NCBI GenBank assembly: GCA_051859825.1 | Contig: JBHYFA010000001.1 | Coordinates: 36,268 to 100,267 of the forward strand | Direction: 5' to 3' | Source: Schleiferiaceae bacterium | GTDB lineage: Bacteria > Bacteroidota > Bacteroidia > Flavobacteriales > Schleiferiaceae | Length of the DNA: 64,000 bases | Shown here: in pieces, positions 5 to 64,000 of the stretch | Numbering within the stretch: the first letter of the stretch is position 1 | Layout of the letters: every line of letters starts with the position of its first letter | Program-made: the position numbers and the translations under genes | The notes under the pieces: model-generated | What the model was told of the DNA's origin: nothing | Database searches by the model: none | Seen by the model: the letters and a program-made list of their open reading frames with translations, nothing else

Positions 5-976
5 ATGAGTTCCGCCATTGAAAAATGGTACGATGAAAATAAGCGCGATTTACCCTGGCGAAAAAAACCTAACCCATACATGGTTTGGCTCGCGGAAATC
101 GTTTTTCAACAGACCCGAATCCAACAAGGTCTAAATCACTACAAACGAATCCTTGAATCATTCCCTAAACTAGAAAACCTCGCTCAAGCATCTGAGGATG
201 AGGTGTTAAAACTTTGGGAAGGACTGGGATACTATTCACGTGCTCGCAACCTCCTTAAAGGAGCTAAACAAATTTCAGCTAAAGGAAATTTTCCCTCCAA
301 GGCAGCAGAATGGGAAAAAATCTCTGGCGTTGGCCCATACACGGCAGCCGCAATTAGCTCAGTTTGCTTTCGGGAAAAAATTGCTGTCCTCGACGGAAAT
401 GTGATGCGCGTAATTGCTCGTGTTTTTTTAATCAAAAATGACATCAGGCTAAAAAGCACCCAAGACAAACTCCGGAATCTAGCGCAAAAATTTGTTGATA
501 AATCCGTATATCCTGGAAATCTTAATCAAGGATTAATGGAAATTGGGGCGCTCATTTGCCTACCAAAAAATCCTAAGTGCCAAAAATGTCCCCTAAAAGA
601 CAACTGTCAACTCTATACAAAAAATGAGGCTGCAGCAGACTACCCTTACAAAAGCCCACCCCCTAAAAAAACCGAACGACATATTCATTGGCTCATTGCT
701 TCAAATAGTAAATTTCTAATGTTGCGAAGGCGCAATGAAAAAGATGTGTGGCAAGGACTTTACGAGTTGCCGCAAACACTTAAGCCTCCGGGCTCTATTT
801 ATCCAAACGCTCAACTTATTCATAAAGGCTCGCATATTCTGAGTCATCAGAAGATTTTCTATCATATATGGGATATTGAACAGTGGAGTAAGCTGTCCAT
901 GGAGTTTCAAGCATTTGATATTGACAGGGAGTTGCCGGCTTTGCCAAGGCCGATACAACGATTCCTCAACAAATAG
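5..976 (+). CDS. mutY: A/G-specific adenine DNA glycosylase MutY
   Basis: HhH-GPD core (VWLAEIVFQQTRIQQG, GVGPYTAAAISSVCF). 4Fe-4S cysteine cluster CLPKNPKCQKCPLKDNC. C-terminal NUDIX-like domain. 323 aa. Confidence 0.85.
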   Translation: MSSAIEKWYDENKRDLPWRKKPNPYMVWLAEIVFQQTRIQQGLNHYKRILESFPKLENLAQASEDEVLKLWEGLGYYSRARNLLKGAKQISAKGNFPSKAAEWEKISGVGPYTAAAISSVCFREKIAVLDGNVMRVIARVFLIKNDIRLKSTQDKLRNLAQKFVDKSVYPGNLNQGLMEIGALICLPKNPKCQKCPLKDNCQLYTKNEAAADYPYKSPPPKKTERHIHWLIASNSKFLMLRRRNEKDVWQGLYELPQTLKPPGSIYPNAQLIHKGSHILSHQKIFYHIWDIEQWSKLSMEFQAFDIDRELPALPRPIQRFLNK

Positions 977-1052
977 TGGCTGTCTAGAAAGTCCGAGAGC
1001 TTCGTTATGCTCGTCTGCAAAAGCGGCTTTAGTCTTGCTTGTAGACACTACT
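974..1052. repeat. Short copy of the REP/MITE-like palindromic repeat family (TAGTGGCTGTCTAGAAAGTCCGAGAGCTTCGTTATGCTCG...TAGACACTAC)
   Basis: Same approx. 45-bp core recurs at 3526, 4350, 21597, 24660, 30751, 40104, 41455 and 55679. The TAG at 974-976 is the mutY stop codon. Confidence 0.6.
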
Positions 1053-2952: not shown

Positions 2953-3528
2953 ATGAACACCATACAACGTATCCTCTTGGTCTTCTTTGCTCTACAATTG
3001 GTCTTTTCGTGCAGTCAAGACCCTATTCCAAAACCCGTAGGCTATTTCCGCATCGAACTACCTCCGGATACATTTACCACTTTTCAAACGGAAACTTGCC
3101 CGTTTAGCTTTGAACATCACGCATTTTCACTGGTAAAACAAAAAAGAGAAAATTGCTGGTACGACATCATTTTTCCGCACCTGAATTCTATGATTCAACT
3201 TACGTATCTTCCCGTTGAAAATGATAATCTGGAAGACCTCCTCGCTGATGCACACAACTTAGTTTTTCGCCATAGCGTAAAAGCCGACGGAATAAAAGAA
3301 GTCTTGTACGTCAACGACCTCAGAAGAGTGTTCGGTATTTTATACAAGGTGCACGGAAACGCAGCCACAGCTACTCAGTTTTACGTCACCGATAGTGTGA
3401 ATCACTTTCTTCGTGGGGTAGTGTATTTTAATGTTGCTCCAAATGAGGACTCGCTGCGCCCGGTGAATGAGTATATGCATGGGCAGGTTCAAGGTCTAAT
3501 AGAAAGCCTAAATTGGTCTGAATATTAG
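2953..3528 (+). CDS. gldD: Gliding motility lipoprotein GldD
   Basis: 191-aa lipoprotein (signal peptide plus lipobox LVFSC). Lies immediately downstream of gldE, as in Flavobacterium johnsoniae. Confidence 0.65.
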   Translation: MNTIQRILLVFFALQLVFSCSQDPIPKPVGYFRIELPPDTFTTFQTETCPFSFEHHAFSLVKQKRENCWYDIIFPHLNSMIQLTYLPVENDNLEDLLADAHNLVFRHSVKADGIKEVLYVNDLRRVFGILYKVHGNAATATQFYVTDSVNHFLRGVVYFNVAPNEDSLRPVNEYMHGQVQGLIESLNWSEY

Positions 3529-3566
3529 TGGCTGGCTAGAAAGTCCGAGAGCGGCGTTATGCTCGT
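3526..3566. repeat. REP/MITE-like repeat copy (TAGTGGCTGGCTAGAAAGTCCGAGAGCGGCGTTATGCTCG)
   Basis: Near-identical to the copy at 974. Its TAG is the gldD stop codon. Confidence 0.6.
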
Positions 3567-3626
3567 TAAAAAACCAAGCCATTATGCGTTGTAAAAGTGA
3601 AATTGATTATTTAAGAGAGCGCGTCA

Positions 3627-4202
3627 TCAACGAAACATTACTTGTTCCCACAAAGGATACGGCATTTTCTCCTTCTCAAGATCATACTCAAACTCCGTCA
3701 TGAGCTCCCCCGTTTGCCAATCGATCCACGCCCACAATCCATCTCGTTTTACGGCAACATAGGTAAAATACTTTTTGTAGCTTCCGTAACCATCACGGTC
3801 GTTCATCGTACGGCCTACTTCGAAAATTTTATAATCATCATAAAGACAATCAACACTCTGACGAACGTCTTCTTCCGCAAACGACCACGGAGAAGTATAA
3901 ATGCCCACTTTGCCTGCTATCCATACGCCTGTTAAATAAGCGTTGAACCCAAAGAAGTCTATGGAGTCATACTGCATTGGAATCTTTTCTTCAATTACCT
4001 TTTCACTGTAAGCTTGAAACATGCCCCACTTTTTGGTCTTACGATGTTGAGCAATGAATACTCCATCTCCATTATTCATGTCAAGCTTATAATCGATTGC
4101 CCGGATTTTCTTTAACATCTTCTTAGTCACCCACTCATCATCATCTTGAGCATAAACCGTAAATCCCAAAAACAACCCAAAAAATAAAAGCAAAGTCCGC
4201 AT
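3627..4202 (-). CDS. Hypothetical secreted protein with W-rich (WG-like) repeats
   Basis: Cleavable signal peptide MRTLLLFFGLFLGFTVYAQ. Repeated KWG/W-containing segments. No recognisable catalytic motif. Confidence 0.5.
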   Translation of the reverse strand: MRTLLLFFGLFLGFTVYAQDDDEWVTKKMLKKIRAIDYKLDMNNGDGVFIAQHRKTKKWGMFQAYSEKVIEEKIPMQYDSIDFFGFNAYLTGVWIAGKVGIYTSPWSFAEEDVRQSVDCLYDDYKIFEVGRTMNDRDGYGSYKKYFTYVAVKRDGLWAWIDWQTGELMTEFEYDLEKEKMPYPLWEQVMFR

Positions 4203-4349
4203 AGTAAAAACGATTAGATTAGTATAAAAGTCATCATTATTGAAAGCTTATCTCATAATGAAGTCTTAATGAAACGCAAAAAAACATAATATATTTTTTA
4301 GCTCACCATCGTTTCTTCAAAAATAGCGGTAAAATGACTTTATTCATAT

Positions 4350-4381
4350 CGCTGTCATCGGACTTTATAGACAGACATTAT
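4350..4381. repeat. REP/MITE-like repeat end in inverted orientation (GCTGTCATCGGACTTTATAGACAGACATTA)
   Basis: Reverse complement of the TAATGTCTGTCTATAAAGTCCGATGACAGC core. Directly follows the stop of the minus-strand 246-aa ORF. Confidence 0.5.
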
Positions 4382-5122
4382 TTATTCACGTCGTGCTTTC
4401 TTATCCTTCTTCCTCCGCTTCTTCGACTTCTTCTTTTTCTTACTTGAAGAAAAGGAATTTTGCAAATGAGTAAGCGGCTGATAAACGTTAAAATAAAGAG
4501 TCAATATAGTGTCATTATCCTCCGTGATTTCTGGTTCCTTTAAGGTCATCGCGTCAACCTGGCCGATCAAAGCTTGTCGCGAAATTTCAAGGTCGTACTG
4601 TTCGAGTAGCGTGTACTCATCCGAAACTCTATTAACCACAAAAGCCGATTCAATTTCGAGACCATCGCCACTTTCACTTATAATATCTAAAAATCGATAA
4701 AATAAATTTCCGTAAAAATGTGCGGTAATGGTATCGCCTAATTCATGATGAGCAATCATTAAATAATATAGGGCTTGAAGATTTACTGGATCATCGTCCC
4801 AAACCTTTTTGGCTGGACTAATTGCATTTTCCCACTCTTTTTCTCTTAAAAAAGACACACTCTTTCTTAAACCAGGGTCGCGAAAATAAGGTTTATAGTC
4901 TCCCGAATACGCCCATCCGTAGTACAAATGAACCATCTCTTGCTTGTGCAGCATTTCTTTGGAACGCATCTTTTTCACTAAGGATGGGTAATAAAGGTCG
5001 CTTTTTTTATCGGTAACCGCCGCTTCAATTGCAGCTAAATCGATGGAGGTAGGTACTTGGGCAAACAAACTATTTGCTATAAAAAAAAGCACCACAATTG
5101 CGAATAAAGTATTCTTGCTCAT
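4382..5122 (-). CDS. Hypothetical secreted protein with a lysine-rich C-terminal tail
   Basis: Signal peptide MSKNTLFAIVVLFFIANSLFAQ. C-terminus SSSKKKKKSKKRRKKDKKARRE. Possibly a DUF4919-like Bacteroidota family. Confidence 0.5.
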   Translation of the reverse strand: MSKNTLFAIVVLFFIANSLFAQVPTSIDLAAIEAAVTDKKSDLYYPSLVKKMRSKEMLHKQEMVHLYYGWAYSGDYKPYFRDPGLRKSVSFLREKEWENAISPAKKVWDDDPVNLQALYYLMIAHHELGDTITAHFYGNLFYRFLDIISESGDGLEIESAFVVNRVSDEYTLLEQYDLEISRQALIGQVDAMTLKEPEITEDNDTILTLYFNVYQPLTHLQNSFSSSKKKKKSKKRRKKDKKARRE

Positions 5123-21396: not shown

Positions 21397-21589
21397 ATAG
21401 AATTACAACAATAAACCTGAATTTTGAATTTTCAATTAATTAATCATCAAACTTTTTTGTCGAATAAATTTACAATCAACTGAAAATTGTTCTACAAAAC
21501 AAACATACATGAAACTTAATACAAACGCAACTTTATTTTAATATTTGTGATAGTTCAGATTAACCAAAAAAATTTACCAACCAGTCAGA

Positions 21590-21905
21590 TTCTAGCTAGT
21601 GACTGTCTATAAAGTAAAGAGTCTGCCTCAGAAAGTTCATAAGCAGGGCTTGCGAAGGTTGAAAAACAGTGAGTCCCGACAAGTCTTTGTCGGGATGACC
21701 TTTTTTCAACCGAGCATAACGCAGCTCTCGGACTTTAAAGACAGACACTAGTTAGAGTCTGTCCATAAAGTGCAAGTGGCTAGGCTAGAAAGTTCGAGAG
21801 CGAGGCTTGCGAAGGTTGAAAAACAGTGAGTTTACATTAGTAAATGACCTTTTTTTCAACCGAGCATAACGAAGCTATCGGACTTTATAGACAGACACTA
21901 GTTAA
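21590..21905. repeat. Tandem array (about 2.5 units of about 150 bp) of the full-length REP/MITE-like palindromic element
   Basis: Each unit carries terminal inverted repeats GTCTGTC(T/C)ATAAAGT...ACTTTA(T/A)AGACAGAC and a central hairpin (GGTTGAAAAACAGTGAGT...ACCTTTTTTCAACC). The last unit supplies the stop codon of the rluA-like gene. Confidence 0.7.
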
Positions 21906-22581
21906 AGCCCCAGGCTGAAAGATAGTTCTGCTTAGTAACAACCTCCACAACATCATCTTTCACCGGATGCTTAAAAATAACTTTAGCTGATTGCAAACAA
22001 ATGCTCATATCTTTATTGGCACGTCGAGCACCATACTTTACATCACCTTTTACCGGATGACCGATTTCACTAAATTGCGCACGAATCTGATGATGCCGCC
22101 CCGTATGCAACTCCACTTCCAAAAGTGTATAACGATCAAAATATTGCAATACTGTAAACGAAAGACGAGCCTCTTTGGCGTCCTTCGAGCCATTAGCAGT
22201 AGCAAATGACTTATTAAGCTTGGAATTCTTTTTAAGATGATGCTTCAATTCCCCCGTCTCGTGGGTCAACTTCCCCTCAACCATAACATGATAATACTTC
22301 TGAACCTCCCTATCGCGAAACATCACGCTTACACGTGAAAGTGCTTTACTGGTTCGGCAAAGCACCAATAGCCCGGAGGTAACGCGATCAAGACGATGAG
22401 GTAGCCCGAGAAAAACTTTGCCTTGTTTATTATAGGTGTCAGCCAAATACCTCTTTCCCTTTTCAAGAATATCTTCATCACCGGTTTTGTCGCCCTGCGC
22501 CAGTTCACCCGCTAATTTATCAACAATCAACAGGTGGTTGTCTTCATATACTATCCTAGAAGAAAAATCAGTACTGCTCAT
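21898..22581 (-). CDS. RluA-family 23S rRNA/tRNA pseudouridine synthase
   Basis: Catalytic motif [13 protein letters not shown]. RluA/C/D-like fold. 227 aa. Confidence 0.8.
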
Positions 22582-23386: not shown

Positions 23387-23522
23387 ATTTTGCTTTTTTA
23401 TTACCTCGCAAAGCTAAACAAAAAATAACAGCTTCATTGAATTATCAAATATATCTTTGCAAGTTCACAACGATTTGTTGAAAACAAAGAAACACACTCC
23501 GGATTTCCTGAGAATAATAAAT

Positions 23523-24662
23523 ATGAAGCACTTCACTCCTTCAAAAAATAAAACGCCCATAACTATGTTAGGAAGGTTATTCCTCATCGCCCTAATAGGC
23601 TTGACAAGTATTTTCTCATCGTGCAACAACGAAGTACCCGTAAACGCTGAGTGGCAAGATATTGCCTATGTATATGGTATTCTAAATGCGGCGGCAGACA
23701 CCCAATTTGTGCGCATTGGCAAAGCTTTTCTCGGAGACGGCCCACCCTCAGAATTTGCGCAAATCCCTGATTCTATCTACTACGAAAATATCAATGTTTC
23801 AATGGAAGAACTCAGTGGAGACAGAGTAGATCGAAGTTTTTCTTTGGAAAAAATCAATCGCCCAGGACAATTGCAGCCAGGATTCTTTACTACAGAAGGA
23901 TTTCATCTGTATTACACCACCGAGCAACTCGACACTTCCAAAACCTACCGCCTTGTCATAGAAAAACCCGATGGTGGCCCAACAGTCACGGCCGAAACCC
24001 GCCTTACTTTTTGGAGAAGAAACCTGAACACGGGAAACGTAATTGAACCTTTCACCGATAGGTTAGCGTTTATTAATACATTTGGAGAACCAAATGTTGT
24101 TAGATTTGTATGGGAGAAAGCGTTCAACTCAGGTGCACACGAAGGTCGGCTCATATTCCGATACAAGGAGCAAAATCGCAGCAATCGAAATGACATAAAA
24201 ACCAAAACCATTGTTTATCAAGTTCCAGCAGCTGAACGAAGAGACGATATTTTAATTGAGATCAGTGATGCCAATTTCTACGGATTTATCGCTTCAAATA
24301 TCCAGCCCGACCCAAATGTGTTTCGCTACTTCGACACCATATTCTTCGATGCCATTGCCGGTGGCGACGATATGCGCTTATACGCTGAAATCAATAGACC
24401 TTCGGGCGGAATTGCCCAAGAAAGACCCACGTTCACAAATGTAGAAAACGGCGTTGGCCTCTTCTCAAGCATGGCCGAAACCAGAGCATTAATCAACGGT
24501 AGAGTTAAGCGGTTTATGCTAAATAACAACTCCTATAATGCCCTTGTAATGGACCTCTGCGACCTTAACTTCGTCAAACTATCCTTTACCGACTCTTGCT
24601 ATTGCGATGGTGGGGTGGTGCAGAGGATTGGGAATACTACCGGGAACTGCAACATTAATTAG
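23523..24662 (+). CDS. Hypothetical lipoprotein, possibly DUF4249-like
   Basis: Lipobox LTSIFSSC. Start placed at MKHF (23523) inside ORF 23457-24662. Lies upstream of the TonB-dependent receptor gene. Confidence 0.45.
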   Translation: MKHFTPSKNKTPITMLGRLFLIALIGLTSIFSSCNNEVPVNAEWQDIAYVYGILNAAADTQFVRIGKAFLGDGPPSEFAQIPDSIYYENINVSMEELSGDRVDRSFSLEKINRPGQLQPGFFTTEGFHLYYTTEQLDTSKTYRLVIEKPDGGPTVTAETRLTFWRRNLNTGNVIEPFTDRLAFINTFGEPNVVRFVWEKAFNSGAHEGRLIFRYKEQNRSNRNDIKTKTIVYQVPAAERRDDILIEISDANFYGFIASNIQPDPNVFRYFDTIFFDAIAGGDDMRLYAEINRPSGGIAQERPTFTNVENGVGLFSSMAETRALINGRVKRFMLNNNSYNALVMDLCDLNFVKLSFTDSCYCDGGVVQRIGNTTGNCNIN

Positions 24663-24724
24663 AGTCTGTCCATAAAGTCAAAGTGACTAGGCTATAAAGT
24701 CCGAGAGCTTCGTTATGCTCCGGC
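24660..24724. repeat. REP/MITE-like repeat copy (TAGAGTCTGTCCATAAAGTCAAAGTGACTAGGCTATAAAGTCCGAGAGCTTCGTTATGCTCCGGC)
   Basis: Carries both the left-end (GTCTGTCCATAAAGT) and right-end motifs. Its TAG is the stop codon of the upstream ORF. Confidence 0.6.
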
Positions 24725-24774
24725 TAAAACTTTACTAAATAGACACTTGCATTTATAAACCGTTTTTCATTAAG

Positions 24775-30750: not shown

Positions 30751-30876
30751 CATAGTTGCTAGGCTAAAAATTTCGAGAGCAAGGCTTGCGAATGATTAAA
30801 AAGCGGAGTTTACGTTTGGTAAATGAGCATTTTTAAGCATTCGCGTAACGCAGCTATCGGAATTTTTAGACAGCAA
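30751..30876. repeat. Full-length variant of the REP/MITE-like element with a compensatory central hairpin
   Basis: TAGTTGCTAGGCTAAAAATTTCGAGAGC...GCGAATGATTAAAAA / TTTTTAAGCATTCGC...CAGCTATCGGAATTTTTAGACAGCAAC. The stem halves co-vary relative to the 21.6-kb copies. Starts 25 nt after the rtcB stop. Confidence 0.65.
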
Positions 30877-31011
30877 CAAATATTGAGGGAGGCTTGATGC
30901 GTGTTTCTGTATAGCACCATTGCCGTGTGCGCTCCACGTGGGTGGATTGCGCTTCACCGTTCACCTCCTCTTGATGGTTTTCGGTCGTTTTCCTCAAAAT
31001 GACCACCAAGC

Positions 31012-40103: not shown

Positions 40104-40140
40104 TAGTGTCTGTCTATTAAGTCCGATGACAGTGTTATGA
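40104..40140. repeat. REP/MITE-like repeat copy (TAGTGTCTGTCTATTAAGTCCGATGACAGTGTTATGAAG)
   Basis: Core motif shared with the copies at 4350 and 21597. Confidence 0.5.
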
Positions 40141-40260
40141 AGAAGTATAATTAACAGCCTTAAAAGTAGTAAACACAATTGATTGAATGGCGGTAAATAA
40201 AAATATTTTTTTATGATACTATTTTTTGTAAGTTTGCATTCTAACCCATTAATAATTAGC

Positions 40261-41457
40261 AAAATGAAAAATGTTTTACTTTTTTGTAGTTTTTCTTTCT
40301 CTTTTGGGCTTGCTGCGCAAATACCCTCTAGTCACTTTGAGTTACCCATTTTCCCAGATTCTGCAACTTCAATGTTATTTGAAGACAATGTCGGAGCATT
40401 GAGTCTGCCTGCACATGGCGGAAGTCAAGTTTATGATTACACTAATATTGTGGATGAATCTAGCTTTGGTAGCTATTACGAAGCATCAGATAACAATCCC
40501 AATTTTCCCAATGCGGATGCCATGCAAACTTACTCCTCCTTTTTAAGTACACTAGAAATTACCGGTAATCGAGCTTATTACAAAAAAGATCAAAACGCTT
40601 TGTATTATTTAGGCTTTGAAACTCCTGTAGGCTCGTATGAAATTGGCTCTGTTTCCATGCATCCGGAAGACTCAATATGGTTTGTTGGGTCGCACACCTA
40701 CCACGGAACGAATGTTCCAATAATTGAGTATCCAATTACTGTAGCTCCGCAGAATTCTTCCTGGGCAGCAAGTTATGATGAAATCACTGATTTTGAGATT
40801 ACAGTTACCATGGCGAATATCATTCAAGCCCCGGGGCAATTGAAACAAAGTGTTCAACAGCACGATACAGTGGTAGGATATGGAATACTCACTCTTCCAT
40901 CTACGGCAAACATTCCTTCAAACGGATACTTCACTAAATTAGTTCGAGAAACTGTCACCACGGTAGATAGTTTCTTTTTAGGTGGTCAACCTGCTCCGCC
41001 AGCGTTATTGGCTCAATTTAGCTTAAGTCAAGGCGAAGTAAATACTATCCATCGATATAAGTTTTTTGCTCACGACCCACTGCAGCCCAAAATGCGCTCA
41101 ACCTTGATGGTGTTAAATCTGAATTCTGCCGCAAACGCAGTAATTGGAGGAAGTTATGATTTGGATTTTTATTCAAGCGTGTCCGTTCAGAAGTTTGGCG
41201 AAGAATTTTCACCGGTAATATCTCCAAATCCAGCCGCTTCTCGCACTGCTTTACAATTTCAGAGACCTCTCGATCAAAATATTAAACTAGTGGTAATGGA
41301 TATGCACGCTAAGGTTGTGAAGGAGATTAACGGAAAAAGGGGTTCCGATGAAGTCACTATTGAAGTAGATGGTTTAGGTTCAGGCATGTACTTAGTGTAC
41401 GTGTACGATGAAGGAGGTGCGTTTCTTGCGAGCCGAAAACTCATCAAAAACGATTAG
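40261..41457 (+). CDS. Hypothetical secreted protein with a T9SS C-terminal sorting domain
   Basis: Start trimmed to MKNVLLF (signal peptide). C-terminus ISPNPAASRTALQF...GMYLVYVYDEGGAFLASRKLIK matches the T9SS CTD pattern. Confidence 0.6.
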   Translation, partial: KMKNVLLFCSFSFSFGLAAQIPSSHFELPIFPDSATSMLFEDNVGALSLPAHGGSQVYDYTNIVDESSFGSYYEASDNNPNFPNADAMQTYSSFLSTLEITGNRAYYKKDQNALYYLGFETPVGSYEIGSVSMHPEDSIWFVGSHTYHGTNVPIIEYPITVAPQNSSWAASYDEITDFEITVTMANIIQAPGQLKQSVQQHDTVVGYGILTLPSTANIPSNGYFTKLVRETVTTVDSFFLGGQPAPPALLAQFSLSQGEVNTIHRYKFFAHDPLQPKMRSTLMVLNLNSAANAVIGGSYDLDFYSSVSVQKFGEEFSPVISPNPAASRTALQFQRPLDQNIKLVVMDMHAKVVKEINGKRGSDEVTIEVDGLGSGMYLVYVYDEGGAFLASRKLIKND

Positions 41458-41485
41458 TGGCTGGCTAGAAAGTCCGGTTCTTCGC
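41455..41485. repeat. REP/MITE-like repeat copy (TAGTGGCTGGCTAGAAAGTCCGG...)
   Basis: Its TAG is the stop codon of the upstream T9SS gene. Truncated relative to the copies at 974 and 3526. Confidence 0.55.
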
Positions 41486-41545
41486 TAATTCATAAAGGCC
41501 ATTGCTTGAGATAGTAATGGCCTTTATGCAATAAGAATTATCGAA

Positions 41546-43663
41546 TTACTTTTCGATATTCACTTTGTAGGTATTCCTCACACCATTCATTTCAACCTTG
41601 AGTATATACATACCTGCTGCGAAATTGCTTAAATCCAGTTGATGTTGATTATTAGCATTTGGCCTAACGTGTTCGGAAAGCAGCGTCTTTCCGTTGAGAT
41701 CCGTAATGTCTAACTTTGCCGTTTCACCTATTGCCTCAAAAAATTCTACTGTTACTTTTCCTGATGATGGATTTGGAAATACATGTATAAAATTTTTCTG
41801 GGCATCCATGGTATTTACACTAACAAAGCATCCATGAAGAAGGTACGAAGGACATAATAGTAATGTGAGATGTGGCCGACTGAAGTTTCTAGAGAAAGAA
41901 AATCTGCTAAACCAATCACTTGAACCTAAATCGTACATGAGCGATTGATAAGGCGGCTCTGTTGTTCTATCATTCTTAACCATCACAGGAAACTGACCTG
42001 ATGAAGAGTATAGCTCGGCTACCAGCCAAAAGGCTGAATCTTTAATGGCGTGACTCCAAATTGGATTAGGGGTAGGATACTCGAAGGCAATCGAACCATT
42101 ATTTAAACCATAAGAGTCGAATATCATCTCGATATACTGATTGGTTATATCTGCTGCAGAAATGGTTTTTCGAGCGCTAAATAGAGGAGTATCATTTGTT
42201 AATAAATCATTATTCCGATATATTTTAAATTCTACTTCACCGCCAGCAATACTCTGGGGGGATAATCCAAGTCTTGCTCCAACAATTTCACCTCTAGAGC
42301 CTTCTTTTACTTCAAATCTCATAGCAATAGCGGATCCATCATCACCCAATTGGTTAGTTCCTATCGAGTTGTCAAATTTGTTAAAATGTAATCCAAGATT
42401 GTAGAACTGTCTTTCAAAGCTGAGCGTATCAGGAGCGTCAGTAACAGTATTGGGACTATTATCTGCGGCATCCAAACTATCGGATATTATTTTTACCACT
42501 ACGTCATATACGCCATTGGTAGTCGGCGACCAAGGTGACGTTTTCAACAGATTCGAATTTACAATTTGCCCCGGCGTTATTGTTCTTGGACTACTACTAA
42601 TAACAGATGAAAGCATTCCATTAGAATAAACTTCTGCTATAATTCGAACGTTGGTTTGAGTACTCGTACCAATGTTTCTAATATTCCCTCCAAATGAATA
42701 TCCACGTGTTTGCATATCTGTATAAGAGGGATACACGCCAGGGTTAACTATACCCCCACCAAAAAAGTTATACCAAACAGTTGGATTTTCAGCTTCAATA
42801 ACAAATGATTCAACATCTGAATTGAAGAGTGTTGACTTTTCAAACGCAAATAAGGTATTGGGCGCAGTTTTTATGGCAATATCATCTACCATCCAATAAT
42901 AGTATCCGTGGCTAGAAGAAGAAGTATCTATAACTCTATTTTTTCCGTCAAAAATGAGCTTAAAACGGGCGTTACTTTCTCCGCCTATGAATGTGCTTAC
43001 ATTAGCAATTGTTCGGTAATCTCGAGGTGTGATAGTATTAATTAAAAATTCATTCGCGACTTCAATGGTATCGGGGTAAGTGTTCCCTCCATCAGAACTA
43101 AAGGCAATAAAGCGTCTGGCGTTATAAGATCTGGCAAAACTAAATAACTCTATTATCACATCTGGGTGGTTAGATAGGTCTATAATTGGCGATTCTAAGG
43201 TTCCCATGTGAGGTGTAGGTGAAACCCCAGAGCCGGGGACATTGGTATTGCCATTATCCAAATAGTCTGAATCAAAAATCACGAAACCGTTGGCAGCAGT
43301 AGGAGAGGCGATAGGAAGGTTAGTTGGAGGTACATTATTAATTCCGGAGAAAAAACCTCGACTGCCAACTGAATTATCAGGAGAAGAATTTGGGCCACGA
43401 TATTCCCATAAAGCATTAGAATCAATAGTTATGCTATCCAAATAGCCAAGGTTATTCCATCCTGCTAAACCGTTAGAAAAGTCTTCAAACCAAATAGTGC
43501 TCGTTTCCGCACCATTAGTTTGAATAGGTTGGATATGGCTTCGTTTACTAACGTCTAAGTGGTGTTCTAAAGTTGCTTTTGCTTTACCTAGCTGAGTTGG
43601 TACAGATTGAGCAAACATTCCAACAGAAAGCAAGCAGAATGAAAAAGTATGGAGTTTTTTCAT
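41546..43663 (-). CDS. T9SS-CTD secreted protein, paralog 1 of a tandem triplet (MAM/choice-of-anchor-J-like conserved N-terminal domain)
   Basis: Signal peptide. Conserved block WFEDFSNGLAGWNN...WEYRGP...GSRGFFSGINN...NGFVIFDSDYLDNGNT...PHMGTLESPIIDLS...WMVDDIAIKTAPN. C-terminal T9SS CTD ending ...GMYILKVEMNGVRNTYKVNIEK. Confidence 0.65.
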   Translation of the reverse strand: MKKLHTFSFCLLSVGMFAQSVPTQLGKAKATLEHHLDVSKRSHIQPIQTNGAETSTIWFEDFSNGLAGWNNLGYLDSITIDSNALWEYRGPNSSPDNSVGSRGFFSGINNVPPTNLPIASPTAANGFVIFDSDYLDNGNTNVPGSGVSPTPHMGTLESPIIDLSNHPDVIIELFSFARSYNARRFIAFSSDGGNTYPDTIEVANEFLINTITPRDYRTIANVSTFIGGESNARFKLIFDGKNRVIDTSSSSHGYYYWMVDDIAIKTAPNTLFAFEKSTLFNSDVESFVIEAENPTVWYNFFGGGIVNPGVYPSYTDMQTRGYSFGGNIRNIGTSTQTNVRIIAEVYSNGMLSSVISSSPRTITPGQIVNSNLLKTSPWSPTTNGVYDVVVKIISDSLDAADNSPNTVTDAPDTLSFERQFYNLGLHFNKFDNSIGTNQLGDDGSAIAMRFEVKEGSRGEIVGARLGLSPQSIAGGEVEFKIYRNNDLLTNDTPLFSARKTISAADITNQYIEMIFDSYGLNNGSIAFEYPTPNPIWSHAIKDSAFWLVAELYSSSGQFPVMVKNDRTTEPPYQSLMYDLGSSDWFSRFSFSRNFSRPHLTLLLCPSYLLHGCFVSVNTMDAQKNFIHVFPNPSSGKVTVEFFEAIGETAKLDITDLNGKTLLSEHVRPNANNQHQLDLSNFAAGMYILKVEMNGVRNTYKVNIEK

Positions 43664-43733: not shown

Positions 43734-45902
43734 TTACACTCGAAAAAAATAAAGGCCATTACTATAGAAAGCAATGGCCTTTAGGACATAAGAAGGTTTA
43801 TCGACGTAGGTGTCGATATTCACTGAGTGGGTGTGGATTGCTCCATCAATTTCCACGCTAAGGATGTACATTCCCGAAGCGAGGTGCCCAAGTTCCATTT
43901 GGTGGTGGGTACTATTGATGTTGCGTGCGGTTTCTGTTTGAACAACTTTACCGCTTAGATCGGTTACTCGTAATATAGCTGACGAGCCTTTTACATCATT
44001 AAACTCTAAAAGTAATCTGCCCGTTGTAGGGTTGGGATAGTAGCGAACATTACTTTTACTTGCATCAATTTCAGAAACACTTAAGTTGCATAGAGAAGCG
44101 GAAGAGCAAGTAACAAGTCTTAAATGAGGTCGTGCAAAATTTCTAGAACCGGTATAGCGGCTAAACCAGTTGCCAGAGTTTGAGTTAAACATCAACGATT
44201 GAAATGGTGATGCGGTTGTACGATCATTTCTTACCATCAGAGGAAACTGGTTATTATTTGAAGTAAATTCAGCTACTAACCAAAAAGCGGAATCTTGGAA
44301 AGCGGTAACCGGTGTAGGGGTTGGATATTCCATATCTACATGTCCAGAATTTGTAGCAGGATTGTAGAAATCAACTTCAACAAAACCTTGCGATATATCG
44401 GCAGCTGTAATTGTCTTACTTGCCACAGCGATAGGGAATCCTCCTGATAGATCAAGGTTTCTAAAGATCTGGAATTCTAAGGTTGCTCCTGCTTGAGTGA
44501 GGGCTGATAAGCCTAGTCTTGCGGCGCTCACCTGATCACGTGATCCTTCTACAGGCTCGAAACGAATAGCCATTTTTGACCCATCTGCTCCAAGCTGATT
44601 GGTTCCAAGCGCATTATTAAAGCGGTTGAAATCGTGCCCGAATAAATTATCCGTTACATTTATAAACACGGTATCTGGTCGTCCATCAATAGAATTAGGC
44701 CCATTTTGAGATGCGGTTAGGCTATCGGAAAGCACTTTAAACACGCAGCCAAAAAGTCCCTTCTGGGTAGGGTTCCAAAAATTTGTCTCTAAAACAGCAG
44801 CTGTTGCTATGTCACCAGATGCAAGTAATGGTACTGCTGGGCTTTGCAGAGTGGTTACCAAAGTTCCACCTTGGTATATTTCAACTGCCAAACTCACATT
44901 CGTTTGTGGTAATGCTCCAATGTTTCTGACGTTGGAATTAAAGCTAAAGCCTCGTTCCTGACGCAAAGTAGTAATAGGATACACACCTGGTGGAACGGTA
45001 CCTCCTCCAAAAAAGTTATACCAAACCATCGGATTATCGGCTTTTACATCAAAGAGTTCAATGGGATTGCCATTTGCATCAGTAGCTTCTTGAAAAGAGA
45101 ATAGGGTATTAGGTGCGGTTTTGATAGCAATATCGTCAACCATCCAGAAGTATAAGCCAGGATTAGCGGTTGCGCTTCTTGGGTTTCTTCCGTCAAAAAC
45201 CAGTTTAATACGTGCATTACTTTGACCTCCTATGAAAGCACTAACGTTTGCAAGTGTCCGAAAATCTCGGGGAGTTGCGGTATTTACTGGAAATTGAGGT
45301 GCAACCCTTATGGAGTCTGGGTAGGTGGTTCCACCATCTGAACTAAAAGCAACGTAGAAGAAAGAGTTGAACATGCGTGCGTAGCTATATAACTCAAGAA
45401 CTACCTCCGGATGACCAGATAAATTGATAATAGGCGATTCCAATGTGCCAATGTGTGGCGCCGGAGCACTGCCTGCTCCTACTGTACTCGTATTACCATT
45501 GTCGAGGTAATCAGAATCAAAAATCACGAAGCCATTCGAAGCCGAAGGTGAAAGTATGGGGTTGTTGGTGGGGGTTGCGTTATTTACTCCCGAGTAAAAA
45601 CCTCTACTTCCTTGGGAAACGTCGGGATTAGTATTGGGCCCACGATACTCCCAAACTGCGTTGGCGTTTGGGGCACCTGTACCAGTAAAGCCCGCGTTTG
45701 TCCATCCAGATAGTCCATTAGAAAAATCTTCTGACCAAATGGGCGTTTCCTTTCCATCGACGAAAAGAGGGCTTTCATTTCGGAGATTATCGGTATCGTA
45801 GTTTAATTCAGGCACATCAGGCATGGTATGAACAGATACCGGAGATTGTGCTATGGCAACGGCACTAAAGCTCAACGCCATTCCAAGGTAGATTTTTTTC
45901 AT
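43734..45902 (-). CDS. T9SS-CTD secreted protein, paralog 2, with a 26-aa C-terminal extension caused by loss of the stop codon
   Basis: Same conserved N-terminal block and CTD as paralogs 1 and 3. The CTD ends ...HTHSVNID, then reads on (TYVDKPSYVLKAIAFYSNGLYFFRV) through the terminator hairpin. Confidence 0.65.
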   Translation of the reverse strand: MKKIYLGMALSFSAVAIAQSPVSVHTMPDVPELNYDTDNLRNESPLFVDGKETPIWSEDFSNGLSGWTNAGFTGTGAPNANAVWEYRGPNTNPDVSQGSRGFYSGVNNATPTNNPILSPSASNGFVIFDSDYLDNGNTSTVGAGSAPAPHIGTLESPIINLSGHPEVVLELYSYARMFNSFFYVAFSSDGGTTYPDSIRVAPQFPVNTATPRDFRTLANVSAFIGGQSNARIKLVFDGRNPRSATANPGLYFWMVDDIAIKTAPNTLFSFQEATDANGNPIELFDVKADNPMVWYNFFGGGTVPPGVYPITTLRQERGFSFNSNVRNIGALPQTNVSLAVEIYQGGTLVTTLQSPAVPLLASGDIATAAVLETNFWNPTQKGLFGCVFKVLSDSLTASQNGPNSIDGRPDTVFINVTDNLFGHDFNRFNNALGTNQLGADGSKMAIRFEPVEGSRDQVSAARLGLSALTQAGATLEFQIFRNLDLSGGFPIAVASKTITAADISQGFVEVDFYNPATNSGHVDMEYPTPTPVTAFQDSAFWLVAEFTSNNNQFPLMVRNDRTTASPFQSLMFNSNSGNWFSRYTGSRNFARPHLRLVTCSSASLCNLSVSEIDASKSNVRYYPNPTTGRLLLEFNDVKGSSAILRVTDLSGKVVQTETARNINSTHHQMELGHLASGMYILSVEIDGAIHTHSVNIDTYVDKPSYVLKAIAFYSNGLYFFRV
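43750..43782 (-). terminator. Terminator hairpin (AAAGGCCATTgctttctatagtAATGGCCTTT plus T-run) now lying inside the paralog-2 reading frame
   Basis: Same hairpin as at 41492-41528 after paralog 1. Followed on the minus strand by TTTTTTT. Confidence 0.45.
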
Positions 45903-46032: not shown

Positions 46033-48123
46033 TTATTTTTCGATGCTCACTTTATAGGTGTTAACCTTTCCACCAATCTCTACACTTAAAATGTAGATGC
46101 CAGAAGCCAAGTGTCCGAGATCCATTTGGTGATGTCCAACAGTATGAGCGAACTCGCTGTGAACAACTTTACCACTTAAATCAGTAACACGAAGATTAGC
46201 TCTATTGGCAGCAGGGTTTTCAAAATCCAGTACTAGACGACCTGTGGTTGGGTTAGGGTAGTAACGAATTCCAGCAAAATTAGCGTCAACAGTCTCAACG
46301 TTAAAGTTACATGCTTCTGCAGAAGAACAGGTAAACAAACGAAGATGAGGACGAGCAAAGTTACGTGAACCTGCAAAAGAACTAAACCAAGAACCTTGAT
46401 CAGGGATAAACATAAGAGACTGCAAAGGAGATGGAGTCGTTGCATCATTACGAATAGCAACGGGGAACTGAGCGTTCTGTGAAGTAAACTCAGCAACTAC
46501 CCAGAAGGCAGAATCTTGGAAATTGGTCACAGGGGTAGGGGTTGGATACTCCATATCGATTTGACCAAAGTTGGTAACAGGATTATAAAAGTCTGCATCA
46601 ACAAAACCCTGAGAAATATCGGCAGCTGTAAGCGTTTTAGAAGCAACGGCAATTGGGAAACCACCAGCTAAGTCAAGGTTACGGAAAACTTTGAACTCAA
46701 CTACACCACCAGCAACGGAAGCAGCAGAAAGACCTAGACGAACACCTAATGCTTGGTCTCTTGAACCTTCTTTGATTTCGTAACGTACAGCAACAGCAGA
46801 ACCATCATTACCTAAGTTATTAGTACCAATTGCATTATTGAAACGCATAAAGTCATGACCAAAGAACTCATCACCAATATTAAAGAATACCGTATCAGGA
46901 CGTGCAGTAATGTTATTAGGGCCATTGTTCGAGGCTGTTAAATCAGATGAAATAACCTTGAAAACACATGCATGAAGACCCTTTTGTGTAGGTGTCCAGA
47001 AGTTGGTTTCCATAATGCTTGCTGGAGCGATGTCTAACACAGGCACAAGTGGAGTAGTGGGAGAAGAAAGCGTAGTTTCTAAAGCACCACCGCGATAAAT
47101 TTCCACTACAAGACCAACGTTTGATTGTGGCGTTGCACCAATATTTCTAATGTTAGCGTTAAATGCAATCGCTCTTGTTTGACGTAGAGTAGTAATAGGG
47201 TAAACTCCGGGAGGAACTGTTCCTCCGCCAAAGAAATTATACCAAACAACAGGATGATTTGCCAACACATCAAATACAGGGGTTGGATCACCAGCAGCAT
47301 TCACAAAAGGCTCGAAGGAGAAGAGTACGTTTGGAGCTGGTTTAATAGCGATATCATCAACCATCCAGAAGTAGTAACCAGGAGCACTTGCAGAATTCAA
47401 TGTGCTATTTCCATCAAAAATCAATTTTATTTTTACGTTGCTTTCACCTCCAACAAAATTACTAATGTTAGCAACAGTGCGGAAATCACGAGGAGTTGCG
47501 CCATTAACACCTAATGCTGAAGCAATTCTGATTGAATCAGGGTAAGTGGTACCACCATCCTTACTGAAGGCAACATAGAAGCTTGAGTTAAATGTACGAG
47601 CATAGCTATATAGCTCAATAATTACTTGAGGGTGTGAAGCTAAGTTAATCGTTGGTGACTCCAAGGTTCCGATATGAGGAGCTTCTGAAGCACCTGCACC
47701 AAAGGTCGAGGTATTATCATTATCCAAATAGTCAGAATCAAAGATAACAAAACCGTTGTCTTTAGTTGGAGAAGCAATAGGGAAATTACTTGGTGTTGGA
47801 TTATTCACACCTGAGAAAAAACCACGACTACCTTGTGAAGTATCGGGGTTCGTGTTAGGCCCACGATATTCCCACTGAGCATTTTGGTCAGGAGCACCTG
47901 TGCCAGTAAAACCAGCATTTGTCCAGCCGGTTAAACCGTTGGCAAAATCCTCTGACCAGATGGGCGTTTCTGCGCCATCAACAAAAATAGGCGATTCATA
48001 AGTGCGCATTGATACACCATCAAACACCTCAAGTACTGGTGTTGCTTCAGGTGCATTAACAGGAGCCTGCGCGAAAACAGAACCAGTGGCAAGCATCGCT
48101 GCAATTACATAAATTCTTTTCAT
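46033..48123 (-). CDS. T9SS-CTD secreted protein, paralog 3 of the tandem triplet
   Basis: About 70% identical to paralog 2 across the N-terminal block (PIWSEDFANGLTGWTNAGFTGTGAP...HIGTLESPTINLASHP...). CTD ends ...YKVSIEK. Confidence 0.65.
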   Translation of the reverse strand: MKRIYVIAAMLATGSVFAQAPVNAPEATPVLEVFDGVSMRTYESPIFVDGAETPIWSEDFANGLTGWTNAGFTGTGAPDQNAQWEYRGPNTNPDTSQGSRGFFSGVNNPTPSNFPIASPTKDNGFVIFDSDYLDNDNTSTFGAGASEAPHIGTLESPTINLASHPQVIIELYSYARTFNSSFYVAFSKDGGTTYPDSIRIASALGVNGATPRDFRTVANISNFVGGESNVKIKLIFDGNSTLNSASAPGYYFWMVDDIAIKPAPNVLFSFEPFVNAAGDPTPVFDVLANHPVVWYNFFGGGTVPPGVYPITTLRQTRAIAFNANIRNIGATPQSNVGLVVEIYRGGALETTLSSPTTPLVPVLDIAPASIMETNFWTPTQKGLHACVFKVISSDLTASNNGPNNITARPDTVFFNIGDEFFGHDFMRFNNAIGTNNLGNDGSAVAVRYEIKEGSRDQALGVRLGLSAASVAGGVVEFKVFRNLDLAGGFPIAVASKTLTAADISQGFVDADFYNPVTNFGQIDMEYPTPTPVTNFQDSAFWVVAEFTSQNAQFPVAIRNDATTPSPLQSLMFIPDQGSWFSSFAGSRNFARPHLRLFTCSSAEACNFNVETVDANFAGIRYYPNPTTGRLVLDFENPAANRANLRVTDLSGKVVHSEFAHTVGHHQMDLGHLASGIYILSVEIGGKVNTYKVSIEK

Positions 48124-52557: not shown

Positions 52558-52765
52558 ATGTAAATGATTTGTTTTTTAGTTGTCATATAGAATGTCCTAG
52601 TCAATTTTCATTGGAGTTTGTGAAGGCTACTACATGGACATTTCATATTTTAACGGATTATCGCTCTCTAAACAAGTATTCAGATTGCGGGTATACATTG
52701 GCCTTTAATTCGGACTTGGCTTTTTGGGTTTGCAAAAATACGTGTCAAATACCAGCTAAAGGGAA

Positions 52766-55678: not shown

Positions 55679-55705
55679 TATAGTCTGTCGAGAAAGCTCT
55701 AAGAG
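55679..55705. repeat. Degenerate REP/MITE-like repeat remnant (TATAGTCTGTCGAGAAAGCTCTAAGAG)
   Basis: Weak match to TAGTGGCTGTCTAGAAAGTCCGAGAG. Immediately after the lepA stop. Confidence 0.3.
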
Positions 55706-63222: not shown

Positions 63223-64000
63223 TTATGCGTTCTCAATAATGTTTATTTCTTCCTCCATTAAATCGTAAAGCTGATAAACCAATTGGTCGATTTGGGATTC
63301 TATGTCAGAGGTGTCTGCTGTGGGGTTTTGTTTTTTGGCCTCAATAATAATATCAAGCAAAGAACAAATTTCGTTTTCTTGTTCATCTGTTGGTATTGGA
63401 ACTCTTAGCGGATTTAATGCTTGTACGCTAATAATTAAATCACCTGTTCCTGTTTTTGGTGAAAGTCTAAAAAGCTCTTTGTTACACAATTTAGAATTTA
63501 ATACTGCAGATAAGAATTTAACTTTTGAACCAGTTGCAATACAAGTGCTATCAAGGCAATATGCGCCACTTTCATCATAGCAAAAGCGAAGTATTGAACC
63601 TATTCGTTTCCAAACTAATTTTGGTTTCTCGAAGTCTTGCCAAAACGCAATATTATCTTGAGTTTCAAACCATTTGTGAGAGGTCTTTTTTCTTGAACCT
63701 TTTTCACCAGTTTGGTGAATTGTTTTACCAAATGATAGCAGGTAGTCTTTGATTGAAGTGTAATCTTCAATATCAATTTTCTTACTTGGAAAAGTTCCAA
63801 CAACCCATTTAACAACTTCATCTGCAACATACTTCTGAATATCTCTTCCTCTTAGTAATGGCTTAATTATTTCTGCTGACTTTGGGTCGGCTTCAATTAG
63901 TTGATTTTTCTTTGATTCGTCAATAATAAATGCTTCGTTGTAGCCTGTTTTTATGCCAAAGTTAATAGTTATATCCCATTCACTTAAAGGAATACCATTA
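63223..64000 (-). CDS. C-terminal part (at least 259 aa; gene continues beyond the window end) of a type IIG restriction enzyme / BREX PglX-like N6-adenine DNA methyltransferase (TaqI_C-like target-recognition region)
   Basis: An uninterrupted minus-strand frame runs from 64000 to the stop at 63223. Motifs: TGYNEAFIID, LLRGRDIQKY, KWFETQD, KPKLVWKRI, FLSAVLNSKL, PIPTDEQENEI, and terminal IDQLVYQLYDLMEEEINIIE, a conserved C-terminal tail (IDxLVYxLYGLTEEEIxIIE) I recognise from type IIG/gamma-class methyltransferases. Confidence 0.6.
   Translation of the reverse strand, partial: NGIPLSEWDITINFGIKTGYNEAFIIDESKKNQLIEADPKSAEIIKPLLRGRDIQKYVADEVVKWVVGTFPSKKIDIEDYTSIKDYLLSFGKTIHQTGEKGSRKKTSHKWFETQDNIAFWQDFEKPKLVWKRIGSILRFCYDESGAYCLDSTCIATGSKVKFLSAVLNSKLCNKELFRLSPKTGTGDLIISVQALNPLRVPIPTDEQENEICSLLDIIIEAKKQNPTADTSDIESQIDQLVYQLYDLMEEEINIIENA

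Follow-up and report, generated by a model that had tools for sequence, protein, structure and literature searches.

The Correia elements (NEMIS) of Neisseria and the ERIC/IRU sequences of enterobacteria are MITEs of about 100-150 nt that form long hairpins, lie near genes and are co-transcribed; both duplicate the dinucleotide TA (2 bp), and effects at the RNA level have been shown experimentally. Among insertion sequences (IS) of the ISNCY family, the ISDol1 subgroup is entered in the ISfinder table with duplications of 6-7 bp. Dispersed palindromes of another kind are the GTAG REPs, which measure 20-40 nt, possess a GTAG or CGTC head, are linked to a Y1 transposase and make no duplication; in many cases the open reading frame (ORF) beside them takes its TAG stop codon from their termini (PMC3733652). 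An automated catalogue of prokaryotic MITEs comprises 81,380 distinct MITEs in Bacteroidota (PMC11602168).

Here we describe a repeat family from a 64-kb stretch of a Schleiferiaceae genome (64,000 nt, hereafter the window), with emphasis on an array at 21593-21904. The family resembles the Correia and ERIC elements as a short MITE with a long hairpin and a position near genes, but its duplication comprises six instead of two base pairs, sequences and host phyla are unrelated, and in contrast to those experimentally studied elements it is known from sequence alone. With the GTAG REPs it has dispersed palindromes and stop-supplying termini in common, whereas their length, head, missing duplication and Y1 link set them apart. 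Element class and phylum are the same as in the catalogue, which may hold unnamed copies of the family. Its terminal sequence matches that of ISSydi1-type ISNCY elements (Candidatus Symbiothrix dinenymphae and unnamed Bacteroidota relatives), in which the flanking 6-mer is likewise of the TANNTA type; unlike these IS, the full copies are only 141-168 nt long (a few reach 194-195 nt), possess no ORF and an unrelated interior, carry an extra inner end motif on the left and fold as one long hairpin. We regard it as very probable that the array consists of two independently inserted MITE copies, most likely mobilised in trans by an ISSydi1-related ISNCY-family DDE transposase.

The two-unit array and its relatives

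The preliminary description of this locus had counted about 2.5 units, which nhmmer and a direct reading of the sequence reduce to exactly two, u1 and u2 (Table 1); no extra partial unit was detected with nhmmer on either flank. According to blastn, the two units are 80% identical, are arranged head-to-tail and have one 6-bp repeat in common, and a perfect TAGTTA duplication encloses u2. With a similarity of just 80% and indels between its units, the array escaped Tandem Repeats Finder.

In the plan of the family, the outer left end G(A/T)GNCTGTC(C/T)ATAAAGT is followed about 4 nt inward by a second, inner copy and then by the right end, and pairing of the inner-left motif with the right arm closes a long imperfect hairpin. 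The ends are imperfect inverted repeats (left GAGCCTGTCCATAAAGT, right ACTTTATAGACAG(A/C)CAC): reverse-complemented, the right end reads GTG(G/T)CTGTCTATAAAGT and agrees with the left end at 14-15 of 17 positions. These terminal inverted repeats are conserved across 56 aligned copies. The left end of u1 is GTGACTGTCTATAAAGT, succeeded by the inner second copy of the end motif, and its right end is ACTTTAAAGACAGACAC; the apical stem is GC-rich in u1 (CCCGACAAG/CTTTGTCGGG) and reads TTTAC/GTAAA in u2.

Both the terminal inverted repeats and the internal palindrome had been recognised before, and both lie far above chance expectation in shuffled sequence, with eight matches of the terminal 15-mer at up to two mismatches (0.09 expected) and three matches of an internal 20-mer (0 expected). 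The unit had also been described as devoid of an ORF, and indeed no ORF of at least 80 aa starts within u1 or u2. The folding check proposed at the same time gave a clear result: both strands fold far better than shuffled controls (z = -4.8 to -6.5 for u1 and u2 on either strand; RNA fold of u1, z = -4.9 on the plus and -6.5 on the minus strand). A scan for tRNA and tmRNA genes found none.

Including u1 and u2, nhmmer recovered nine copies of the family in the window, and a density of about one copy per 6-7 kb is established for the window together with its flanks. Seven of the eight further copies that had been listed earlier were recovered with blastn or nhmmer; the eighth, at 55679, has 3 mismatches in 17 and went undetected by nhmmer up to E = 10, and is left unsupported. 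The copy at 30751-30877 displays several compensatory changes in the alignment with the consensus. Most of the so-called solo ends are right-end fragments, which by themselves fold no better than shuffled sequence (z = -0.15 to +1.1). Their origin can be traced at 3528-3583 by comparison with the JGI contigs Ga0573892_08 (3.1 Mb) and Ga0573892_45, which are 99.4-99.9% identical to the window, with 99.5-99.9% for Ga0573892_08: a JGI contig keeps a complete 127-nt hairpin at this site, of which 66 nt are missing in the window, and therefore solo ends arise by deletion within the hairpin.

Table 1. Positions of the array, of the other family copies in the window and of the candidate autonomous elements (the latter in coordinates of their metagenome contigs)
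Feature	Position	Strand	Description	Evidence
Outer duplication copy TAGCTA	21593-21598	.	One base off the other two copies	Direct read
u1	21599-21748	+	Full-length MITE, 150 nt	nhmmer E = 5.5e-31
Duplication copy TAGTTA	21749-21754	.	Common to u1 and u2	Direct read
u2	21755-21898	+	Full-length MITE, 144 nt, near family consensus	nhmmer E = 5.4e-41
Duplication copy TAGTTA	21899-21904	.	Right of u2	Direct read
Right-arm fragment	976-1023	-	Degenerate remainder to ~1050; first base completes TAG stop of ORF 5-976	blastn, nhmmer
Internal-deletion derivative	3528-3583	-	Right arm + last 6 nt of left arm; adjoins TAG stop of GldD-like gene (2953-3528)	
Right-end fragment	4345-4378	+	Beside TAA stop of ORF 4382-5122 (minus strand)	blastn, nhmmer
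Rearranged, degenerate copy	24662-24760	+	Outer left end intact; family D12; adjoins TAG stop of ORF 23457-24662	
Hairpin core	30751-30877	+	Complete core, outer left end decayed	nhmmer E = 7e-27; fold z = -7.5
Right-end fragment	40106-40139	-	Divergent intergenic region	nhmmer E = 1.5e-4
Short right-end fragment	41457-41484	-	Weak match; adjoins TAG stop of ORF 40213-41457	E = 0.02
Candidate autonomous element L099	17-1735		1719 bp; perfect duplication TATTTA	
Candidate autonomous element L049	106-1617		1512 bp; perfect duplication TAATTA	
Candidate autonomous element L075	323-1968		1646 bp; perfect duplication TAAATA	

Several observations concern the surroundings of these copies. The short-read contig L214 of a near-identical strain (SRR12738921) starts at 4356, inside the right-end fragment at 4345-4378, which is consistent with assembly breakage at the MITE repeat; two others, L217 (SRR12738921) and L218 (SRR35644364), share a start at 52620, a position without a family copy. 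The fragment at 41457-41484 is followed by a native terminator-like hairpin. Beyond it, on the minus strand, lie three tandem paralogous genes of about 700 aa each (41546-43663, 43734-45902 and 46033-48123), spaced by about 2.2 kb and 60-75% identical at the DNA level, of which the one examined encodes a C-terminal Por_Secre_tail domain (type IX secretion); near-identical terminator-like hairpins follow two of them (41492-41537 and 43749-43794). A fused restriction-modification protein of 1287 aa with MmeI/Eco57I-type methyltransferase domains, DUF7149 and DUF7814 starts at the edge of the window (63223-64000) and continues on contig L216 (13453-17316).

The gene content of the window is of the Bacteroidota type (Por_Secre_tail, GldD, DUF4249, TonB-type receptors). 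In a collection with one genome per species, a 25-nt right-arm pattern occurs in 34 stretches from six MAGs, all of them Cryomorphaceae/Flavobacteriales, and nhmmer identified family members in 49 of 120 metagenome stretches among the matches listed for the right-end pattern. A scan of IMG/VR with the end motif returned 51 stretches, all of them chance matches without a family member, and the PLSDB plasmids gave no blastn match. Rfam was searched as had been proposed, and no Rfam family matches the unit: the whole window has no match at gathering thresholds, and with E values up to 10 the stretch 21550-21950 yields just three chance-level matches to eukaryotic snoRNA/miRNA families (15-19 bits against gathering scores of 50-74). 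The searchable literature offered no relevant context for the MITE end sequences and nothing specific on MITEs in Flavobacteria or on ISSydi1/ISDol1.

The earlier view of a dispersed, non-coding and non-autonomous element mobilised in trans is thus backed by the six MAGs and the metagenome stretches, and also by the duplications and empty orthologous sites considered below. Its label "undescribed" is appropriate as far as Rfam and the relevant searchable literature are concerned, but ends and duplication are those of an annotated ISNCY group near ISSydi1. The MITE family is unnamed, but an ordinary kind of element.

Target duplication, candidate transposase and array formation

Among the 45 distinct copies of full length, 28 have a perfect 6-bp TANNTA duplication and 34 have the same central dinucleotide on both sides, for which shuffles give 8.3 on average and never more than 18. 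If only centres that are not palindromes are considered, the two 6-mers stand in direct orientation in 20 pairs and are inverted in one. The duplicated sequence varies between near-identical copies. The target logo is Y-TA-A/T-rich-TA-R, reconstructed as Y-TA-(A)(T)-TA-R, with TAATTA as the commonest form; the outer Y/R preference is also found at junctions free of stop codons, a G being placed just outside the duplication in 5 of 110 cases, and the flanks outside this 8-bp logo display no conservation. The family combines a small non-coding size with terminal inverted repeats, a target-site duplication and dispersed copies that are present or absent among genomes, and it transposes as a MITE, a non-autonomous class II element.

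With its structure, its length of about 150 nt and its conserved internal loops, the unit could also be taken for a non-autonomous derivative of an RNA-guided element, the loops serving as guides, either of IS110/IS1111 with its bridge/seeker RNA or of IS200/IS605 with its omega-RNA. However, neither the flanks outside the logo nor the duplication of near-identical copies is conserved, a DDE partner with matching ends exists (see below), and we know of no 6-bp duplication made by the IS110/IS1111 or IS200/IS605 families. An RNA-guided origin is barely conceivable.

The preliminary description had named, as one option, REP/REPIN-type elements, which are spread by RAYT, a Y1/HUH transposase related to IS200/IS605. 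Palindromic, dispersed and extragenic copies, solo and doublet-like forms, and hairpins with compensatory changes agree with such an origin, as do termini that supply TAG stops, reported for GTAG REPs (PMC3733652). At about 150 nt, however, the units exceed the 20-40 nt of REPs, and a GTAG or CGTC head is missing, their ends reading TA followed by G(A/T)G; isolated right ends fold no better than shuffled sequence, identical ends bound elements with a DDE transposase, and the Pfam tables for the window and its flanks of about 10 kb list no Y1 transposase family. The copies are moreover flanked by a variable 6-bp direct duplication, and to our knowledge single-strand transposition by Y1/HUH enzymes makes no target-site duplication. 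Duplication, size and missing head dispose of the IS200/IS605-type option, and spread by RAYT appears extremely unlikely.

A first search for the partner of the MITE, confined to loci with a match to the MITE profile and based on end pairs at up to 2-3 mismatches and on clustering of multi-copy ORFs, revealed no autonomous element among the MITE-bearing loci. A relaxed search covered all fetched loci, including those without a MITE interior, and demanded two end-like 17-mers 0.5-3.5 kb apart with a matching 6-mer outside both ends. It yielded three elements of 1.5-1.7 kb in metagenome contigs (L099, L049 and L075; Table 1). Their terminus GTGTCTGTCTATAAAGT(CC), which corresponds to GAGTTTGTCCATACAGTCC in ISSydi1, is found at both ends of L099 and L049 and only at the 3' end of L075, whose left end is divergent; the 3' ends of all three match the MITE right end for 19 nt. 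Each element contains a single ORF of 458-469 aa, which scores 348-355 bits with the NCBIfam model NF033593 "ISNCY family transposase" (cut-off 325), matches Pfam DDE_Tnp_1 above its cut-off and stays far below the cut-offs of the IS5 and IS1182 models. The transposase has 2504 homologues at E < 1e-30; among the matches listed (120 of 2504), those with a name are nearly all from Bacteroidota. One homologue, at 61% identity, bears the name "ISNCY-like element ISSydi1 family transposase", and the ISSydi1 copy ends in ...GGACTGTATGGACAAACTC followed by TAATTA, while a 64%-identical relative (L221) possesses GAGTCTGTCTATAA... at both ends.

MITE and IS are alike in their ends of 17-19 nt alone and have unrelated interiors, so the MITE did not arise from these IS copies by simple deletion. 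The window and the 10 kb to its left and right contain no transposase gene, and none of the 120 homologues listed (of 2504) sits on the 3.1-Mb source contig. Judging from the common ends and duplication type, the ISNCY transposase of an ISSydi1-like IS most likely moves the MITE in trans. The cognate transposase, for which a RAYT-like search had been advised, hence has a candidate in elements that bear a transposase and MITE ends in metagenome contigs, but this candidate is of the DDE/ISNCY and not of the RAYT type.

Two more observations concern other loci. L148, a metagenome contig retrieved with the right-end pattern, carries at 3005-3959 a fragmented and apparently degenerate transposase of ISNCY type, in pieces of 49-65% identity. 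On L040 (2837-3043), an element of about 207 nt has the end motif of the MITE (TA followed by GTGTCTGTCTATAATGT), a degenerate opposite end and an unrelated interior, which suggests a second MITE family served by the same transposase.

In the mechanism that we propose, the 17-19-bp ends G(A/T)GNCTGTC(C/T)ATAAAGT would serve as recognition sites for the transposase, which would cut the palindromic target Y-TANNTA-R with a 6-bp stagger, as the duplication implies, whereby TANNTA would be duplicated. Each insertion would rebuild the target on both sides, and a second element could land in the duplicate; the units of an array would in this way come to have one 6-mer in common. Because every insertion would rebuild the target on both sides, reinsertion beside a resident copy would be expected. 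Adjacent pairs were found at about ten independent loci, all of them head-to-tail and each with a single shared 6-mer; head-to-head pairs are probably filtered out as long unstable palindromes.

The near-identical JGI assembly differs from the window at the array itself: both Ga0573892_08 and Ga0573892_45 have one u1-like unit where the window has two, and u2 is absent. This might indicate that the tandem pair in the window is a local duplication or an assembly artefact. However, u1 and u2 are only 80% identical and possess different apical stems, and therefore recent duplication or assembler stutter fails to account for them. A perfect 6-bp duplication bounds u2, and head-to-tail pairs that share one 6-mer recur at about nine other independent loci, which also argues against duplication or artefact and makes either very unlikely. 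The single JGI unit departs from u1 by three clustered differences, two of which match u2, and the one-unit versus two-unit difference could be due to recombination or assembly collapse and not to a fresh insertion.

Empty sites add to the picture of two independently inserted MITE copies. Three orthologues of the rluA-like gene next to the array (60-76% identity), situated in conserved synteny, are free of the element after their stop codon. The gene order is panB, rluA and then a hypothetical gene (the latter in the two contigs of sufficient length), with gaps to the next gene of 38 and 91 nt, compared with a spacer of about 500 nt in the window; the third contig ends 44 nt past the stop. 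Likewise, L022 carries the element and L032 does not, and both genes end in an identical stop codon. The comparison with related genomes, suggested at the outset, has thus provided orthologous sites without the element as well as near-identical assemblies that differ from each other.

Elements at stop codons

In five genes of the window, the TAG stop codon takes its TA from the end of the duplication and its G from the start of the element (ORFs ending at 976, 3528, 24662, 41457 and, on the minus strand, 21898), and in a sixth gene the stop is the first TAA of the duplication. At the array, the last base of u2 becomes the G of the TAG stop of the pseudouridine synthase (rluA-like) gene at 21898-22581 on the minus strand, and the TAGTTA at 21899-21904 contributes, on that strand, the TA of the first two stop codon positions. 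The RluA-like protein ends in WGFN* in the window and in WGMNK*, WGFSL* and WGMEK* in the orthologues, and the sequence past the array restores AAC TAG.

A called stop codon lies inside the junction at 38 of 104 element sites, whereas among free sites the proportion is 6.6% for non-coding TANNTA and 12% for YTANNTAR (p = 1e-10 for elements against YTANNTAR). When just the zone between the stop and 60 nt downstream is considered, the proportions are 63% for elements and 49% for free sites. A special mechanism of stop targeting was considered and rejected, as the six-fold excess over TANNTA drops to three-fold against YTANNTAR and the proportions near stops are as close as 63% and 49%. Most of the stop-codon excess is therefore explained by the TAR in the target, the G at the start of the element and survival at gene 3' ends. 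Since the target holds TAA or TAG and the element begins with G, insertions on stops keep the stop and the protein. Insertions that overlap a gene stop in this manner would tend to survive, and later decay through deletions inside the hairpin would produce the "solo" right ends. Full copies adjoin a stop codon with their right end 20 times and with their left end 7 times. About 4 kb past the right end of the window (L216, 18164-18295), a copy is placed inside an operon, between atpD (ATP synthase beta), whose stop it adjoins, and atpC (ATP synthase epsilon).

Conservation of the hairpin interior and significance of the family

Covariation was assessed in the alignment of 56 copies, for which the structure was taken over from u2. 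RNAalifold on a MAFFT alignment recovered the outer helix alone because of mid-alignment indels, and therefore the structure mapped from u2 was tested. In this structure 88.6% of the cells are paired, 28 of 44 pairs have changed on both sides, and the covariation score amounts to 0.256, as against 0.112 in shuffles (none of 500 reaches 0.256) and 0.035-0.087 with slid partners. The unpaired part contains two blocks with hardly any variation, GGCTTGCGA and GAGCATAACGCAG. The 14 copies with a decayed outer left end reach a pairing of 0.907, and the 42 full copies one of 0.878. Mispairs of the G·T type (75) and of the A·C type (56) display no asymmetry, so neither strand is marked as RNA. For the consensus unit, no canonical terminator was predicted.

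Different copies also contain GC-rich mini-hairpins of the form CCCGA(N3-14)TCGGG at three different positions, for example at 4729-4885 in L030, 2447-2610 in L101 and 21673-21696 in the window. These mini-hairpins are about 60 times denser inside the elements (24 in 15 kb) than outside (19 in 730 kb), and several of those outside adjoin right-end fragments.

The conservation of the interior can have several explanations: it could reflect a need for the hairpin in transposition, co-evolution of the arms with the transposase, or a function of the RNA or DNA at the level of the host. In the last case, which would add to the MITE reading, the hairpin core would be a functional RNA or DNA module under host-level selection, such as a 3'-end mRNA stabiliser, a terminator, a processing site or a protein-binding site, and transposition just its means of spread. 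The degree of pairing and a covariation above all shuffles, the near-invariant blocks and the equally high pairing after decay of the outer left end all agree with a selected module, as do the interior unrelated to that of the partner IS, the orientation bias at gene ends (20 right-end against 7 left-end junctions) and the copy between atpD and atpC. A purely selfish cut-and-paste element has no obvious need for compensatory changes and invariant blocks, which counts against the plain MITE reading. On the other hand, relaxing the Rfam search to E = 10 brought no match, mispairs of the G·T and A·C types are nearly equal in number, the consensus unit has no predicted canonical terminator, and copies lie in either orientation, some of them in promoter-side regions. 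Covariation of the arms is likewise expected where a single transposase has to accept both ends, or where subfamilies originate in palindromic form. On balance we consider a host-selected module rather unlikely. The more specific idea of a selected hairpin with two near-invariant internal-loop blocks, delivered precisely to stop codons by an ISNCY-type transposase, is unlikely too, and slightly more so.

The findings contain no new principle; they have practical and comparative consequences. The family breaks short-read assemblies and inflates intergenic regions, as in the rluA-like spacer (about 500 nt versus 38-91 nt in relatives), and its overlap with stop codons can mislead gene callers and repeat maskers in MAGs of Flavobacteriales. 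It provides a clean example of how a target containing TAA or TAG and an element starting with G turn stop codons into safe landing sites, and the target rebuilt on both sides also accounts for the build-up of arrays. An unnamed MITE is tied to the poorly studied ISNCY/ISSydi1 group, which in turn gains the target logo Y-TANNTA-R. If the hairpin were selected after all, the family would represent a mobile 3'-end cassette for mRNA stability, termination or processing, a module that the host would keep even once its transposition end has decayed.
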